A stretch of DNA of 42,860 nucleotides from a virus (IMGVR_UViG_3300047275_000196:1-42860), one strand, 5' to 3'; positions 1-11,085 are shown, counted from the stretch's first letter. The notes: a model not told the origin generated them from the sequence alone. Translations and numbers: made by a program.

Positions 1-43
1 CTGTGGGATAGCTTGAAACACCGGGCGGGGCGGCGAAGTTAGC

Positions 44-135
44 ACCCCAGAGCGACAAGGCTGACGGGTCATGCGACCGACGGGTCAGCGTGTGAAGGGC
101 AGGCCTAGGATGGGCTAGGTCTGCTCGCTCGGGGT
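44..135 (+). ncRNA. Candidate structured RNA (three-way junction) upstream of the replication gene; may be truncated by the window start
   Basis: Closing stem accccagagcga (44-55)/tcgctcggggt (125-135); arm gctgac (60-65)/gtcagc (84-89) with inner ggtc-atgc-gacc; arm gggcaggcctag (97-108)/ctaggtctgctc (115-126) with G-U pairs favouring the + strand. Confidence 0.5.
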
Positions 136-5879: not shown

Positions 5880-5905
5880 GAGAAGCAGAGGGGGTTGCCC
5901 CCCTC
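5880..5905 (-). terminator. Hairpin or weak terminator at the end of the leftward operon
   Basis: - strand GAGGGGG-GCAA-CCCCCTC followed by tgcttctc; overlaps the VWA stop; poor U tract. Confidence 0.4.
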
Positions 5906-7880
5906 ACGCCACCCGCCTGTGGTCGGCAGCCTTCAGTTGGTCAATCACCTTACGCAGCGCGATTGAGTGCAGGTCTTCAATGCGACGAACCGAAGCGCCA
6001 ATCTCGTAGGCTTCGGAAAGCAACTCATCGCAAGTGCCGATACCGAACGCGACCACCTCGACATCGAACATCGCCTTGCTGGCGCGGGTTAGCAGCCGAA
6101 CTTTCTTCGACTCGCCGAACCCGTCCGTGATCACGATCACGATGCGTCGGCCAGCCTTGCGCTGCGACAGTTGTTGGACAACTGCTCGAAGGCAGGTGTA
6201 GTCCGGCGTACCGCCGTTCGCGATCTGCCCCATCTTCACGAAGTGGTGCGGGATGCTGGCAGTGCGATCCTCGAAGCGCTTGGCGACCACGAGGACACCA
6301 TTGCGGACTTCGCGTGACTCGGTGGTTTTAATATCCCCGAACATGTCGCGGCCAGATGACATCTGGACGTGATCGTAAGTGCTGGGTGATCGGAACCCGA
6401 CCACCTCGCACTCAGCGCCAGCGGCCTCCGCAGCCTGAGCGATCGTCCACGCAAGGTGAGCCGAAGTTTTGGCGTTTTGTCCGTTCATTGAGCCAGACAA
6501 GTCAACCAGCACCGACACCGAAGTGTGGATGCCTTCGCTCTCCCATCGGCGCTTGAAGACTGACTCGCTGCCGCTGAACATGCGCGGCGCACGTCGGCCA
6601 TCGAACCGCCCGCTGACAGCACCGCTGTCCCAGCCGCAACGCTCGGGAGCCTTGAGGATCTGGTACAGGCGCGACTTCAGCGCGGGCAGCACCGCCTTCG
6701 ATAGCGTTCGAGCGGCTCGGCGCAAAGAGGCTTCGTCCTTTTGCATCGAACTCCACTTCCGCATTTCGCTGCGACCCGGAGCAGGCGCGACCGGCAGTTC
6801 AATCGAGAACGGCACACGCTCTCGAACGCGCTTGAACACCTCGCCGATATCCGGCTCAGGCGACTTGCACAGTTGTTCGTCGTACTGTTCAGTCTTGTCT
6901 TCAAAAGGCTCGTCACCTGAACCAGTACCGCAAGCGTCATCGCCGTCGCCCGAGTCATCGCTGTCACCAGCGCCTGACATCGAGACTTCACTTTCATCGC
7001 CAGCCTCGACCGTGTTGGCGATGTCAGAGTCAGCCTCAGCTAACTCGTCTTCGCCGTCTTCGCCGCTGTCACCAGCGTCGGACTCGTCGGACTCGTCGGA
7101 GTCGCCAGAGTCTTGCTGCTGCTGTTCCTGCTGTTGAGGCTGCTGCCACGGCATACGCTCAGGCTCATGTTCCTGATTGACATCTTCGAGTTGCTTCCAG
7201 CCTTCGAGGAACTTCACCGCCAGACCAAGCGCCTGACCGGTTCCATCACGATCCAGCGACAGGCTTGGCATCGCGTCGGCAACCGCCTTGTACAGGCTTC
7301 TCTTCGGCTCAGGAATGCGGGCGAGCAGCGACTTGGCGAACCCGTTGCCATCGCCGTATGCGGCGCGGCAGATCAGCGCGAGAGCGAACGGTGCGCTGTT
7401 GATCGATGCCGGGTTGAACGATGCGTCGAGTTTCGACGTGTAGTGCGACATCAAGCGCTTGAAGCCTGAACGCAGGCCATTAGCGCGGCCAGAGACGATC
7501 ATCGCATGCTCGATGCGGGCATCCTCAATGCCGTTCCACAGTTTGCAAATCAGGGCATGCTGAGGGCTGCTGTACCGATTCAGCGCCGTGTTGTCAGTGA
7601 AGGCAACGTGACCAAGTTCGTGACCAGTGTAGGCGGCGATCAGGTCAGCCTCTTGACGCGACACATACGAGTTGTCCGGCATCGCAGGGTAGTTGATCCG
7701 GTACGCGATGACCTTCGACTTGTCTATCGACATCTGCCACTGAGCGTATGCGATCTCGCCACCGAAGGTGACAGTGCCAGCGCCTGACATCACGGCATCG
7801 CTGCCGAGCAGCACTCGCAGTTGTTTTTGCGAGTGGACTAGTGCGGCAGCCTTGATGGCCGCAGATTTAATCTTTTGCAT
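5904..7880 (-). CDS. CobT-like VWA domain protein
   Basis: N-terminal GHELGH...WNGIEDARIE, long D/E/Q-rich linker, SGRFD, MIDAS DLSGSM, GGTP, ITDG. Confidence 0.85.
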   Translation of the reverse strand: MQKIKSAAIKAAALVHSQKQLRVLLGSDAVMSGAGTVTFGGEIAYAQWQMSIDKSKVIAYRINYPAMPDNSYVSRQEADLIAAYTGHELGHVAFTDNTALNRYSSPQHALICKLWNGIEDARIEHAMIVSGRANGLRSGFKRLMSHYTSKLDASFNPASINSAPFALALICRAAYGDGNGFAKSLLARIPEPKRSLYKAVADAMPSLSLDRDGTGQALGLAVKFLEGWKQLEDVNQEHEPERMPWQQPQQQEQQQQDSGDSDESDESDAGDSGEDGEDELAEADSDIANTVEAGDESEVSMSGAGDSDDSGDGDDACGTGSGDEPFEDKTEQYDEQLCKSPEPDIGEVFKRVRERVPFSIELPVAPAPGRSEMRKWSSMQKDEASLRRAARTLSKAVLPALKSRLYQILKAPERCGWDSGAVSGRFDGRRAPRMFSGSESVFKRRWESEGIHTSVSVLVDLSGSMNGQNAKTSAHLAWTIAQAAEAAGAECEVVGFRSPSTYDHVQMSSGRDMFGDIKTTESREVRNGVLVVAKRFEDRTASIPHHFVKMGQIANGGTPDYTCLRAVVQQLSQRKAGRRIVIVITDGFGESKKVRLLTRASKAMFDVEVVAFGIGTCDELLSEAYEIGASVRRIEDLHSIALRKVIDQLKAADHRRVA

Positions 7881-7889
7881 GTTGCTTCC

Positions 7890-9098
7890 TCACGCCACTT
7901 CCGGCGTACTGTTTTGATCAGGTTGCTCGACCGGCTCAGGGATCGCCAGCCCAGCCATCGCCGCCTCGATGACGGCGTCGGACATGTTTGCCTTCCAAAT
8001 TTGCTGTAGCACCTCGCGTGACTCAGGCGATGCTCGATTGACCATCGTCTGCTCAAACGCCATGCGCGTCGGCATTTTGTCAGCCAGCGCCTCAGCGAGA
8101 TAAAACGCCTCGCGCAGCGTCGGAACGTGATCCAACTGACTAGACTGACCAGCCTGCCGCATCACATCGAGCAGCCTGACAATCAACGTCGCAAGATTGA
8201 CGTGGACGCCAGTGCGATTGCTGATCACGAGTGCCTCGTCAGCAGGCTTCAGGTAACTGAACTCGACTGTGCGAGCGAAACGATTGACGAACGCGACGTT
8301 CATCTCGCGAACGCCCACATACATGCCGGTGTAGTCGCCGCGACCGTTCGAGTTGTCAGCAGCGAAGAACACCACGCCCGGAGCCTTGCGAATCACTTCG
8401 CCAGTCTCAGGCACCGTGACCACGCCCTCCGGCTCCAGCGGCGCGTGAAGTGCCGACAGGTACTCAGGGCGAGCGAACGACACTTCATCGAGCAGGATCA
8501 CAGCACCGGGTCGCACGAAGCCTCGCAGGATGATGCCGTGCTGGTACACGGTCGATCCGTTGCGGACACGCTCGCCGCCGATGAACTCGTACCGCTCAGC
8601 GCCAGAATCGAACGATACGCGAACAAAGGCGCGACCAAGGCCAGCGCACAGGTTGCGTACGAACTCGGTCTTGCCGGTGCCTGCTTGGCCAGCCAGCCAG
8701 ACGTTGCGACCGCGAGCAATCGCAGTCACAGCAGCGAACAGTTGTTCCGGGTTGAACTTGTACAGCGGATCGAGCGACGGCGCTGCCGGATCGTTCCACA
8801 CCTCGACCTCGTGATCAGCGTACCGCCCACGGATTCCGAAGACCTCGCGCAGCGACTTGCGGGCGACGATCTCGACATTCGGCACTTCGACCGACGCAGA
8901 AGGCGCAGGGGCGGCGACCGATCCGAGGGAGCCTGAGATAAGCCCCATCGATGCAATCGCCTCAGAAACGCTCTCAGGCGGTAATGATGACACTTGCTCG
9001 ATGAAGTCCTGCTTGGACTTGCGGGCGTAGTCGCCAGCGGAGCCGGTAACCCGGCGAACCAACTCCACGAGTTGGGACTTGGACATTTGGTTGATCAT
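7890..9098 (-). CDS. CobS/MoxR-like AAA+ ATPase
   Basis: Walker A GQAGTGKT, Walker B ILLDE, AADNSNG.GD.TGMY.G, AFVNRF; adjacent to the VWA gene. Confidence 0.9.
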   Translation of the reverse strand: MINQMSKSQLVELVRRVTGSAGDYARKSKQDFIEQVSSLPPESVSEAIASMGLISGSLGSVAAPAPSASVEVPNVEIVARKSLREVFGIRGRYADHEVEVWNDPAAPSLDPLYKFNPEQLFAAVTAIARGRNVWLAGQAGTGKTEFVRNLCAGLGRAFVRVSFDSGAERYEFIGGERVRNGSTVYQHGIILRGFVRPGAVILLDEVSFARPEYLSALHAPLEPEGVVTVPETGEVIRKAPGVVFFAADNSNGRGDYTGMYVGVREMNVAFVNRFARTVEFSYLKPADEALVISNRTGVHVNLATLIVRLLDVMRQAGQSSQLDHVPTLREAFYLAEALADKMPTRMAFEQTMVNRASPESREVLQQIWKANMSDAVIEAAMAGLAIPEPVEQPDQNSTPEVA

Positions 9099-9127
9099 GG
9101 GAGCCTCACAGTTGTTGTTGATTGTCT

Positions 9128-9189
9128 GACCTCGTCAGGCAGTGCATGACACTGCGACAGGGACGCCTCACGGCGAGCCTGTTTCGGTC
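9128..9189 (-). ncRNA. Type II hammerhead ribozyme HH1
   Basis: - strand gacc-GAAA-cagg[ct cgcc gtga ggcg tc]cctg-TC-gcagtg tcatg cactgc-CTGACGA-ggtc: complete core, three stems, GUC site (cut between 9156 and 9155). Confidence 0.93.
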
Positions 9190-9371
9190 TACTGAGCCAT
9201 CTCCTTGATGCCAGCGATGCGACCATCGAACCGGCCAAGTTGGTATATGTACACCAGCGTTGCGCGTACCGACTCAGCAGACGGCGGGAATCCGCACTGG
9301 GCGGTCTCGCCGAAGCGCCGCATCAGGGTCTCGACGATCCGCTCGACTTCGGCGTTGGGATACTTTTCCAT
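9189..9371 (-). CDS. Small hypothetical protein (MEKYPNAEV...)
   Basis: GGAGG SD before ATG 9371; TAG overlaps HH1. Confidence 0.65.
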   Translation of the reverse strand: MEKYPNAEVERIVETLMRRFGETAQCGFPPSAESVRATLVYIYQLGRFDGRIAGIKEMAQ

Positions 9372-9373
9372 GA

Positions 9374-9466
9374 TCAATCCTCCAAGCGGGTTGCGATTAG
9401 GTAGGCAGCGACCAGCATGACGGCGACCAGCCACATGCGTACGGCGTAGAACAGAAAGACTTCCAT
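9374..9466 (-). CDS. 30-aa hydrophobic peptide (MEVFLFYAVRMWLVAVMLVAAYLIATRLED)
   Basis: GGAGGT SD; TGATG coupling to the upstream ORF; single TM-like stretch; fills the gap exactly; not in the ORF track. Confidence 0.55.
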   Translation of the reverse strand: MEVFLFYAVRMWLVAVMLVAAYLIATRLED

Positions 9467-9657
9467 CACTTCACCTCCCAAACCTCGTGTCCGCGACCAC
9501 TGGTCGCGTCACGGTTGTCGCGGTCGCGGCTGAGTTTGAATTCAGCCACGGCAGCGTACTTGTGCCAGTCTTTGCCGGTCATCTCGATCCGAGCATTCTT
9601 GGCGTAATCGAAGCCAGCGAATTTGGTTCGCGGCGGCAGTTTGATCATTTTCATCAT
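9466..9657 (-). CDS. Small hypothetical protein
   Basis: GAGGT SD; 63 aa; operon packing. Confidence 0.6.
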   Translation of the reverse strand: MMKMIKLPPRTKFAGFDYAKNARIEMTGKDWHKYAAVAEFKLSRDRDNRDATSGRGHEVWEVK

Positions 9658-9662
9658 TCACC

Positions 9663-9917
9663 TCACAGGTCGTACAGCGATACGCTGGTGGACATCACTT
9701 CCGAAACGACTTCGGCGAGTTGCTCTTCAGTAAGCAACTGCCGCACCTTTTTCGCATCGATGCGGCTCGATGACCGCTCCGATACGACAGCGCGAAAAAC
9801 GTCGCCGCGATACTCGCCAGCGCCGGACTCACGCAGGATTTTCTTGATGGCCTCAGCCTGAGCATTCAGGGTGGCAATCTGTGCGTTAAGCGCACCAAGT
9901 TGATCGACGATTTGCAT
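9663..9917 (-). CDS. Small phage protein with N-terminal coiled coil
   Basis: GAGG SD after HH2; IVDQLGALNAQIATL...IDAKKV. Confidence 0.7.
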   Translation of the reverse strand: MQIVDQLGALNAQIATLNAQAEAIKKILRESGAGEYRGDVFRAVVSERSSSRIDAKKVRQLLTEEQLAEVVSEVMSTSVSLYDL

Positions 9918-9947
9918 ATAGCCTCACAGTTGTTGTTGATAGTTGTT

Positions 9948-10001
9948 GGTCTCGTCAGTGGCAGCGTGACTGCCAGACCGGGGCGAACCCCGGTTTCGAC
10001 C
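9948..10001 (-). ncRNA. Type II hammerhead ribozyme HH2
   Basis: - strand ggtc-GAAA-ccgggg ttcg ccccgg-TC-tggcag tcacg ctgcca-CTGACGA-gacc; GUC site (cut between 9976 and 9975). Confidence 0.95.
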
Positions 10002-10036
10002 TATTGCCCAGTGGCTTTCCATCGCTGCGCGTTCAT
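10001..10036 (-). CDS. 11-aa mini-ORF MNAQRWKATGQ
   Basis: ATGA-coupled to the upstream stop; in-frame TAG overlaps the first base of HH2. Confidence 0.35.
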   Translation of the reverse strand: MNAQRWKATGQ

Positions 10037-10230
10037 GCGGCCACCTGTGAGAGTTTGGTTTCATGTATGGACTCTTCAGCATGGACGCAGCCCAAATCTG
10101 TAAAGGCTTCGTCATCGTCCTCCCATGTTTCCATCGCCAGCTCTTCAGCCTCGGCGGCGTTCTCTGCCTCAACTTCAACTTGATAAATGCGGTGTTCGAT
10201 ACGGGCGATTTGTACTGTGTAAAGTTTCAT
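10033..10230 (-). CDS. Small acidic protein, DpnD/PcfM-like
   Basis: MKLYTVQI......VEVEAENAAEAEELA pattern; ATG 10230 follows the CAACAAC/GGAG leader. Confidence 0.65.
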   Translation of the reverse strand: MKLYTVQIARIEHRIYQVEVEAENAAEAEELAMETWEDDDEAFTDLGCVHAEESIHETKLSQVAA

Positions 10231-10252
10231 GCGGTTTCCACTCCAGTTGTTG

Positions 10253-10564
10253 TTAACAGTTGTTGGTCTCATCAGCACCCGCATCACGGGTATGCTGACT
10301 AAGTAGCAGGGCACGTTTTCGCATAAACTCGAAGAACCCCTGCAACCACTCGACGGCTTCGGGGTCGTTCTCGACGTTCGCCTCTGGATCGTCTAAGTCG
10401 CAGTAACCAAGGGCATCATCGACCAGTTCCACCCAGCCACTGAATTCGGCGCTGTAGCACTCGCCGTAAACGTGGCGCAGCCCGTACACGGCGCGAACGC
10501 TGCCGTCATCTAGTTGCAGTGCGCGGATGATCGACGCTGGAATAGCGGACTCGATGGGAAGCAT
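10253..10564 (-). CDS. Hypothetical protein; C-terminus reads through the half-ribozyme
   Basis: AGGAG SD after HH3; 103 aa. Confidence 0.65.
   Translation of the reverse strand: MLPIESAIPASIIRALQLDDGSVRAVYGLRHVYGECYSAEFSGWVELVDDALGYCDLDDPEANVENDPEAVEWLQGFFEFMRKRALLLSQHTRDAGADETNNC
10265..10292 (-). other. 3' half of a hammerhead (stem I, CUGAUGA, gacc) lacking the GAAA/stem III half
   Basis: - strand tacccg tgatg cgggtg-CTGATGA-gacc-aacaac; no ggtc-GAAA-stem III-UH upstream. Confidence 0.7.
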
Positions 10565-10585
10565 GGGGATCTCCTAGAAGTTGTT

Positions 10586-10637
10586 GGTCTCGTCAGTGGC
10601 GGCCTCACCGCCAGACCGGCTCGCGCCGGTTTCGACC
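10586..10637 (-). ncRNA. Type II hammerhead ribozyme HH3
   Basis: - strand ggtc-GAAA-ccggc gcga gccgg-TC-tggcgg tgagg ccgcca-CTGACGA-gacc; GUC site (cut between 10614 and 10613). Confidence 0.95.
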
Positions 10638-10840
10638 TAATCCTCGTAGTTGCTTGCTTCAGGGTGCGGCTCGACTGACCCCTTGTAGTACGGGTTGCGG
10701 TACCACACGTCCCGGTCGCTCAAGATCCAGCACACGTCACGCCGCTGGGCACCGACGTTATCCGCATACTCGCGGTCTGCCTGAGCCATCGTGGCGTACT
10801 CATCGTAGGCTTGAGCGATCATGTTGTAGTGACTGTTCAT
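10637..10840 (-). CDS. Small hypothetical protein, first gene of the leftward operon
   Basis: GGAG SD; WILSDRDVWYRNPYY.G...PHPE; TAG overlaps HH3. Confidence 0.75.
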   Translation of the reverse strand: MNSHYNMIAQAYDEYATMAQADREYADNVGAQRRDVCWILSDRDVWYRNPYYKGSVEPHPEASNYED

Positions 10841-10868: not shown

Positions 10869-11046
10869 TGACTCAGTGCAGCGTCCTCAGCGAAGACGCT
10901 CTACTGAGTCAAGTTTCCCGGTACGTTGGGCAGATACTGGTCTGCTTTAGGCCGGACTCCCTTCGGAGCCGCCGGGGCTGCTGCTCGCCCATCCCGGCAC
11001 CAGAACCTTTGTTTTTCACCTAGCGGCTTGGCCTGTCTGGGAGGCC
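10869..11046 (-). ncRNA. Structured 5' leader with five hairpins
   Basis: Stems at 11030-11046, 10971-10998, 10955-10970, 10930-10945 and 10869-10911 between the promoter and the first ATG. Confidence 0.55.
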
Positions 11047-11056
11047 AGTGATGGGA

Positions 11057-11085
11057 AGTCTGAACAGTTCAACAACTGTTGTCAA
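11057..11085 (-). promoter_or_regulatory. Leftward sigma70 promoter overlapped by CAACAACT repeats
   Basis: - strand TTGACA (11085-11080), 17 bp, CAGACT (11062-11057); A-tract upstream; spacer holds the inverted repeat aacagtt-caac-aactgtt. Confidence 0.7.

Follow-up and report, generated by a model that had tools for sequence, protein, structure and literature searches.

Predicted type II hammerhead ribozymes as candidate self-cutting insulators between small gene blocks of a freshwater phage operon

The virus record IMGVR_UViG_3300047275_000196, a linear sequence of 42,860 bases estimated to be 77% complete and analyzed here over its whole length (the window), is by its terminase, capsid and tail genes that of a tailed freshwater phage. 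Within 1.5 kilobases (kb) of this DNA, on the minus strand of an operon of small genes, lie three elements that are well supported as genuine cis-acting type II hammerhead ribozymes, each with a predicted cleavage site. We favor, with moderate confidence, an interpretation in which these ribozymes cut the operon transcript while it is being made and thereby insulate swappable gene blocks, supplying each with a standard messenger RNA (mRNA) that begins with a hairpin-capped 5'-OH end.

A structural scan of both strands of the window returned exactly the three elements that a sequence-only reading of this DNA had proposed, with 100 dinucleotide shuffles giving a mean of 0.02 matches (maximum 1) at loose thresholds and none at strict ones. 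Ribozyme 1 occupies positions 10586..10638, ribozyme 2 positions 9948..10002 and ribozyme 3 positions 9128..9190, all on the minus strand. Each runs from one strand of stem II through GAAA, stem III, GUC and a stem I of 6 base pairs (bp) with a loop of 5 nucleotides (nt), to CUGACGA and the second strand of stem II. The CUGACGA, GAAA and GUC core segments are present in all three, together with the G10.1-C11.1 and A15.1-U16.1 pairs, and the topology is that of type II, with stems I and III closed by loops and stem II open. H17 was placed by the scan at 10614, 9976 and 9156, in agreement with the cuts predicted earlier (10614/10613, 9976/9975 and 9156/9155). The stem sequences and the loops (UGAGG, UCACG and UCAUG) also accord with the earlier description, as does the arrangement of stem II, which has the same sequence in ribozymes 1 and 2 and is swapped in ribozyme 3. 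Past every cut, again as described, comes a CA-rich leader with a Shine-Dalgarno (SD) sequence and an AUG (50, 59 and 58 nt from the cut, respectively). Each element starts one base earlier than described, at a conserved A (10638, 10002 and 9190). No promoter-like or terminator-like site was found on the minus strand at the ribozymes. Comparison with the Rfam model Hammerhead_II (RF02276) using Infernal, a check that the earlier reading had suggested, recovered two of the three elements at 27.1 and 20.1 bits, but below the gathering score of 37; no match was listed for the middle element (9976), and all three are missed at gathering level. In a 220-nt context, stems I, II and III of ribozyme 1 form with pairing probabilities of 0.96, 0.92 and 0.98, and the minimal sequence of ribozyme 2 has the hammerhead as its minimum-energy fold.

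Three motif scans of viral contigs placed these elements within a larger family. The scans gave 34, at least 128 and at least 128 loci; the last two are samples, and all counts refer to the matches listed. The second scan forced the A and G before the core and is left out of counts at those positions, and the third used a pattern that left the stems, U1.7 and the 5' flank free. From this third scan, 145 of 147 unique matches fold as hammerheads, and stem II measures 4 bp in 137. Among the 140 members with at least 300 nt of upstream sequence, stem II stops sharply (a fifth pair occurs in 1/140), the five free pairs of stem I hold in 140/140 with four to six pair types each, and the three free pairs of stem II hold in 135-138 with several pair types each. 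The three stems are thus supported by covariation across the family. An SD sequence and start codon follow in 123 of the 140, at a median of 22 nt after stem II, and the leader is 43% A, against 27% in the loci. Hairpins flank the predicted cut on both sides, with median energies of -8.6 kcal/mol at the new 5' end and -11.2 kcal/mol near the new 3' end.

Examination of the same family for tertiary contacts revealed no sign of a pseudoknot between loop I and the 3' tail, which could be drawn in 4/140 members compared with 9 when partners were shuffled; the 5' flank likewise showed none in excess, and in the three ribozymes of the window loop I can make at most two Watson-Crick pairs with the first 12 tail bases. 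By contrast, U1.7 is kept in 142/145 members and the A before stem II in 141/145, with two of the three members that lack U1.7 also lacking the A. Passages of PMC11875169 describe a tertiary contact in which U1.7 pairs with an A adjoining stem II. If it forms here, this contact probably stabilizes the fold in place of the pseudoknot.

According to the interpretation we favor, a transcript begun at a promoter near 11.05 kb would be cut as it is synthesized, each ribozyme folding and then cleaving after GUC. On the upstream piece the stem III hairpin would form the 3' end, some 25-35 nt past the stop codon, and would carry a 2',3'-cyclic phosphate. On the downstream piece the initial 5'-OH would sit immediately at the stem I hairpin, and behind that hairpin would come the CA-rich leader, free of structure, and then the SD sequence. 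The predicted pieces are of about 440 nt (leader and open reading frame (ORF) A), 638 nt (ORFs B and C), 820 nt (four small ORFs) and at least 3.2 kb (cobS and cobT). Whatever lies upstream, every gene block would thereby have the same standard kind of 5' end, protected from nucleases, along with a ribosome entry site of its own; 5'-OH ends resist decay that depends on a 5'-monophosphate. The A of the U1.7-A contact, just 5' of stem II and often inside a stop codon, would substitute for the pseudoknot, and the near-identical ribozyme-leader units would also act as joints for the exchange of gene blocks.

Processing into shorter mRNAs is plausible because of the anatomy of the elements and the chemistry of hammerheads. 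The earlier claim that one early transcript is cut in this way is to that extent sustained, but the proposal itself was already made by Perreault 2011 (PMC3088659), whose main text describes hammerhead arrays of this kind that cleave in vitro and in Escherichia coli. Engineered hammerhead insulators, in the passages of PMC7536230 that deal with them, standardize the 5' untranslated region and raise stability. The more specific expectation of four mRNAs would need full cutting by all three ribozymes, and sits less easily with the slight preference of ribozyme 3 for a core-burying hairpin and with the absence of the inner ribozymes from some close relatives. RNA was sought in public data: six metatranscriptome runs contain about 5% of the words of the window, and in the two examined, contigs of a relative span sites that match cuts 1 and 3. 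Such contigs are blind to RNA ends, strand and level, and records of 16-25 kb suggest that DNA was present in the library.

Relatives of the operon were collected by a CobS search, which gave 27 loci, two of them dropped for want of upstream DNA. A ribozyme stands 54-59 nt before cobS in all 13 relatives at 78-90% CobS identity (several of which are near-identical and therefore not independent), a counterpart of ribozyme 3 that has undergone changes in its stems. The promoter and leader are common to relatives, and the small genes are exchanged.

Several observations nevertheless weigh against the self-cutting insulator interpretation. A further ribozyme is present in 11 of the 13 close relatives and the cobS ribozyme is the only one in the other two, so the inner ribozymes are dispensable. 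No type II hammerhead occurs in the 664-3500 nt upstream of cobS in any of the 12 relatives at 67-71% CobS identity, which indicates that the operon works without ribozymes. A gene swap is also seen at a junction that carries no ribozyme (a skip of 9467-9658). In the 220-nt context the stem II probability falls to 0.09 for ribozyme 2 and 0.01 for ribozyme 3, tertiary contacts being outside the model. Passages of PMC11875169 report U1.7 to be non-essential for fast cleavage in trans constructs, and in glmS, as portions of PMC6765202 relate, cleavage by the ribozyme leads to decay of the message and not to stability. Natural comparisons with and without a ribozyme before the same gene are at hand among the relatives (locus L043 versus L042, and L037 versus L036).

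The position of the upstream stop codon raises an alternative, in which cutting would be gated by translation. Each ribozyme of the window opens on UAG, its A lying just 5' of stem II and its G forming the first base of stem II; this UAG is the stop of a 67-residue ORF at ribozyme 1, of a 60-residue ORF at ribozyme 3, and of an 11-codon ORF only at ribozyme 2. Across the family, a stop codon of an ORF of at least 40 codons falls 2-7 nt before stem II in 92/140 members, compared with averages of 3.4 at random positions, 6.1 at random AG and 3.4 on the opposite strand. Of the 119 members with a stop no more than 60 nt upstream, 94 have it at most 4 nt from the conserved A, and in 49 it contains that A, as against 21/156 core-free junctions with a stop-to-SD distance of at most 4 nt, a control made with a crude gene caller that misses genes and from which 99 junctions with the SD sequence inside the upstream gene were set aside. 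ORFs rarely extend into the ribozyme. Under translation-gated cutting, a terminating ribosome would keep the ribozyme from folding by sitting on GAAA, on the conserved A and on the 5' strand of stem II; cleavage would then report translation of the upstream gene, as in attenuation, and a 3' tail (RUCAG) would catch the freed core; when the sequence is blocked through the stop codon, the computed probability of stem II indeed drops to 0.00-0.03.

This tail is itself a recurrent feature of the family. We compared 287 unique members of both scan sets, keeping those with a 17-nt stem I plus loop, a 4-bp stem II and no extra base. UCAG starts within 12 nt after A9 in 91/287, whereas control windows give 5-17. 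The base before UCAG tracks core position 7 (C/G 53, C/A 6, U/A 20 and U/G 7; Fisher p 6e-9), and the trend persists in the 45 members whose motif lies wholly beyond stem II, which form 24 clusters (13, 1, 9 and 3; p 8e-4), clustering removing kinship only in part; two clusters contain both the C-G and the U-A form. Where the 3' strand of stem II reads GGUC, 29/29 members continue with AG. The RUCAG tail can pair with CUGAY, which buries the core and displaces stem II, and this off fold is favored over the hammerhead fold by a median of 1.6 kcal/mol, tertiary contacts being outside the count. In ribozyme 3, the core CUGAC pairs with a GUCAG made of the stem II strand and tail (anti-core hairpin at 9126..9138, minus strand), and the fold with this hairpin is slightly preferred, at -30.0 kcal/mol versus -29.3 kcal/mol for the hammerhead, a difference of 0.7. 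Such pairing may hold the precursor in an inactive state, or it may lock the product. A role for RUCAG as a partner of loop I was rejected, the loop containing UGA in 19/91 members with the tail and 42/196 without it. The tail showed no link with the length of the downstream ORF or with the last position in an array. A separate peculiarity of this region is an extra U between A9 and G10.1 in the cobS ribozyme of six of the 13 close relatives (L035, L036, L037, L038, L041 and L045), and with it the loop of the anti-core hairpin would have 4 nt instead of 3; this is a place where extra bases are known from a viroid hammerhead.

The same data limit how far gating can be taken. The decay of stop positions away from -2 fits genome compaction against a hard edge equally well, so a close stop can be explained either by such compaction or by selection for coupling. 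Ribosomes leave a stop codon quickly, and any gating would therefore be partial. The anti-core tail and the close stop are not significantly associated (73/89 versus 140/195; p 0.08), and 196/287 members have no tail, ribozymes 1 and 2 among them. At ribozyme 2, moreover, the adjacent stop belongs only to the 11-codon ORF; the stop of ORF C, to which this short frame is coupled, lies 34 nt before stem II. We accordingly regard translation-gated cutting as unlikely. A broader form of the proposal would make the widespread, pseudoknot-free phage subtype as a whole a two-state switch set by the upstream stop codon, with release of cobS-cobT dependent on upstream translation: the stop codon would supply the A of the tertiary contact and the start of stem II, the terminating ribosome would block folding, and in about a third of members the covarying tail would lock the core off or lock the product against re-joining. 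We hold this view to be doubtful. No literature account of stop-codon overlap or of a core-complementary tail in phage hammerheads was found in a search that most subscription journals and supplements lay outside, and the silence of the literature on the tail is weak evidence of novelty.

Cleavage might instead hand the pieces to host nucleases and so shut off early genes. The glmS ribozyme provides a precedent for such accelerated decay, and passages of PMC6765202 include the suggestion that the pieces have different stabilities. The hairpins on either side of the predicted cut point the other way, and a fresh SD leader in 123/140 members is the build of a message meant for translation; we think this account quite unlikely.

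The repeats could also be kept mainly for shuffling accessory genes, with cutting incidental, after the manner of the PeSL cassettes of T4-type phages described in portions of PMC2839356. The relatives show that gains, losses and exchanges of gene blocks take place at the near-identical ribozyme-plus-leader repeats. Ribozyme 1 is 98% identical over 62 nt to a ribozyme in locus L035, where both flanking genes differ. The entire window was found in freshwater metagenome runs, a possible source, and 34-47% of its words occur in four aquatic runs that belong to one other study. One contig from another study's DNA run skips 10257-10579, the stretch that holds ORF B together with a half ribozyme, and 13 letters at the joint fit on either side; ORF B is likewise missing from a related strain in another study. 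The half ribozyme, overlooked in the earlier description, lies at 10265..10292 on the minus strand and consists of stem I with the loop UGAUG, CUGAUGA and one strand of stem II, followed by a CA-rich leader; it would be unable to cut in cis because the half with GAAA, stem III and GUC is missing. An intact ribozyme in locus L043 has a 3' half that is 91% similar to it. In the probable source run, a low-depth contig that extends into another gene has a full 5' half before the same 3' half (loose end at 10291). All that a further contig has in common with the window is 10279-10311; the 33-nt stretch that ORF B shares with this other contig matched no viral record. We read the half ribozyme as a probable recombination scar: ORF B would have been inserted between repeats, and a short shared stretch would have cost it both its own stop and the 5' half of the ribozyme, an origin for its 3' end that one loose-end table suggests. 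Across the family, however, stem sequences change without loss of pairing or of the core, so that it is RNA structure and not DNA identity that is under selection; the best-kept copy, before cobS, is the least similar in sequence, and swaps occur without ribozymes too. A purely recombinational purpose for the array thus appears very unlikely.

The remaining alternative, that ribozyme pairs release pieces which are then circularized or re-joined, the piece between cuts 1 and 2 being able to form a chimeric hammerhead, draws on the stem II sequence shared by ribozymes 1 and 2 and on a possibility raised in the main text of PMC3088659, and it is most improbable given that spliced or circular products went undetected in the experiments described there, that ribozyme 3 has a swapped stem II, that 2/13 close relatives have a single ribozyme, that an anti-core tail would hinder re-joining, and that two RNA runs yielded no back-joint (their contigs, which come from a relative, are weak for such a test).

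The ribozymes sit in a minus-strand operon that extends from about 11.05 kb to 5.9 kb and is probably early. It is placed between replication genes at 0.2-5.8 kb and the terminase, capsid and tail genes, which PHROGs matches locate on the plus strand from 11.8 kb. Seven small ORFs come first, to none of which PHROGs, Pfam or the ESM Atlas assigned a function. ORF A (67 residues; 10637..10840, minus strand) belongs to phrog_36991, a family of unknown function; the conserved A of ribozyme 1, like its first stem II base, comes from the UAG stop of this ORF. ORF B (103 residues; 10253..10564, minus strand) matches no family, reads through the half ribozyme at its 3' end and has as homologues only seven weak 27-residue matches in metagenomes. 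ORF C (65 residues; 10033..10230, minus strand) shows a weak DpnD/PcfM-like match below the Pfam cut-off; its stop is overlapped (AUGA) by the putative 11-codon ORF (10001..10036, minus strand), a sequence reading, which ends on the UAG that opens ribozyme 2. Next, uninterrupted by any ribozyme, come four further ORFs of 84, 63, 30 and 60 residues (9189..9917, minus strand); ribozyme 3 opens on the UAG with which the last of them stops. The operon then encodes a CobS-like, MoxR-type AAA+ ATPase of 402 residues (7890..9098, minus strand; phrog_249, E 6e-49; Pfam AAA_5) and a CobT-like VWA protein of 658 residues (5904..7880, minus strand; Pfam CobT_C above cut-off; phrog_1576 and phrog_5298). 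The pair thus sits in the variable operon of a phage of roughly 50 kb and not among its late genes. No terminator-like site was found on the minus strand after cobT, which converges on plus-strand genes, and no cultured close relative was found, the best CobS match standing at 34%. At the very start of the window (1-69, plus strand), the 3' part of a Betaproteobacteria-1 RNA (RF02932; 50.5 bits), cut by the window end, is the only Rfam match in the whole window to reach gathering level.

Upstream of the small genes lies a candidate sigma-70-type promoter (11057..11085, minus strand), with an A-rich upstream tract and a 17-nt spacer. In this site, which the sequence-only reading had proposed, the -35 hexamer (11085-11080) is perfect and is kept in 6/6 aligned relatives, but the weak -10 matches at only 3/6 positions and a consensus scan did not list the site. 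The spacer (11062-11079) is an inverted repeat of ACAACUG, a 7-base word that recurs in every translation leader (copies at 10869, 10263, 10250, 9933 and 9115). The minus strand of the operon holds 10 copies of this word in 5.4 kb, several of them coding, versus 4 in 37 kb elsewhere, and the word may serve as an operator or mark an RNA-binding site. Between the promoter and the first gene, relatives share a structured 5' leader RNA of 140-200 nt (10869..11010, minus strand, in the window), a multi-stem junction with a closing stem, an invariant junction linker and arms of variable length, one ranging from about 10 to 70 nt, followed by a long hairpin. Thirteen distinct versions were collected (window 11010-10869 and loci L334, L337, L338, L341, L342, L344, L346, L355, L361, L362, L364 and L365); a consensus fold of 10 of them shows two-sided change in 8/41 pairs, and the long hairpin shows two-sided covariation. 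No Rfam family came near its gathering score for this leader (the best relevant, RT-17, reached 15.5 bits versus 40.4) and there was no tRNA match; the leader could be an antiterminator, a protein-binding RNA or another ribozyme. A CUGAGGA inside its hairpin (10890) was rejected as a hammerhead for having neither stem I nor stem II.

Related arrays were encountered in other genomes. Larger arrays of the same subtype, with up to 8 matches in one 5-kb locus, occur in L204 and L205 (one contig), L219 and L192, and the anti-core subtype is present in six contigs of bacterial metagenome-assembled genomes from at least four phyla (L327-L332), which are probably prophage or viral contigs. In the cultured Streptomyces phage Haizum (L333; MH590601, 44-50.6 kb), six unannotated type II hammerheads of a different build, with a longer stem I, stand between small genes of a right-end operon, the last directly before an OCR-like antirestriction gene; an antirestriction gene, ardA, beside such ribozymes is also noted in the main text of Perreault 2011 (PMC3088659).

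The layout of the array has been known since 2011, and the array itself adds little to it. As set out in the main text of Perreault 2011 (PMC3088659), multiple hammerheads flank single genes or short gene blocks in prophages, processing was proposed, and three arrays cleaved in vitro and one in E. coli. The prophage arrays described there (triples in Clostridium scindens, Azorhizobium caulinodans and Agrobacterium tumefaciens) resemble the present one in their type II cores, their small variable gene blocks and their size. Against those main-text passages (Dataset S1 and Figures S4-S5 of that work may contain the present subtype), the ribozymes here differ in lacking the pseudoknot between loop I and the 3' tail, in a fixed 6-bp stem I, 5-nt loop and 4-bp stem II, in a stop codon that abuts stem II, and in a covarying anti-core tail in a third of the family. 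The consensus pseudoknot of that paper, in which loop I forms at least 4 pairs with the tail 3' of stem II, is a majority feature and not a universal one; it is absent here. The absence of the pseudoknot, the stop codon at stem II and the covarying tail together justify the status of a variant. Rfam Hammerhead_II (RF02276), the best match for two of the three ribozymes, has the same core and permutation, but its model has a stem II of 2 bp where ours is of 4 bp; the subtype is under-annotated because it falls below the Rfam threshold. The biological role of self-cleaving ribozymes between bacterial and phage genes is called open in passages of PMC6765202 and PMC6155905, and three measurable features of the family (the close stop, U1.7/A and the core-covarying tail) make that question experimentally simple. 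A two-state switch, if true, would amount to attenuation carried out by a ribozyme and would give the self-cleaving ribozymes of phages a concrete biological role.

Other known systems share single aspects of this arrangement. The early transcript of phage T7 is likewise a polycistronic phage RNA cut between genes at hairpins, an analogy drawn in the earlier reading that holds for the outcome but not for the ends: there the host protein RNase III cuts and leaves 5'-phosphate and 3'-OH ends, whereas self-cleavage here is predicted to leave 5'-OH and cyclic phosphate ends. The PeSL cassettes (PMC2839356, in the portions concerned) are also repeated regulatory units that mediate gain, loss and replacement of small genes, but they are promoter-terminator units that act on transcription, whereas the present units would cut RNA inside one transcript. 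Self-cleavage that promotes translation in eukaryotic RNA viruses, as part of PMC13725137 recounts, is a distant parallel only. RiboJ-type insulators, as passages of PMC7536230 present them, similarly place a hammerhead before the ribosome binding site to give one standard 5' end; they are engineered, stand after a promoter and carry an added hairpin, while the ribozymes of this phage are natural, of type II and intergenic, with stem I itself capping the predicted product, a subtype that offers compact natural insulator parts.

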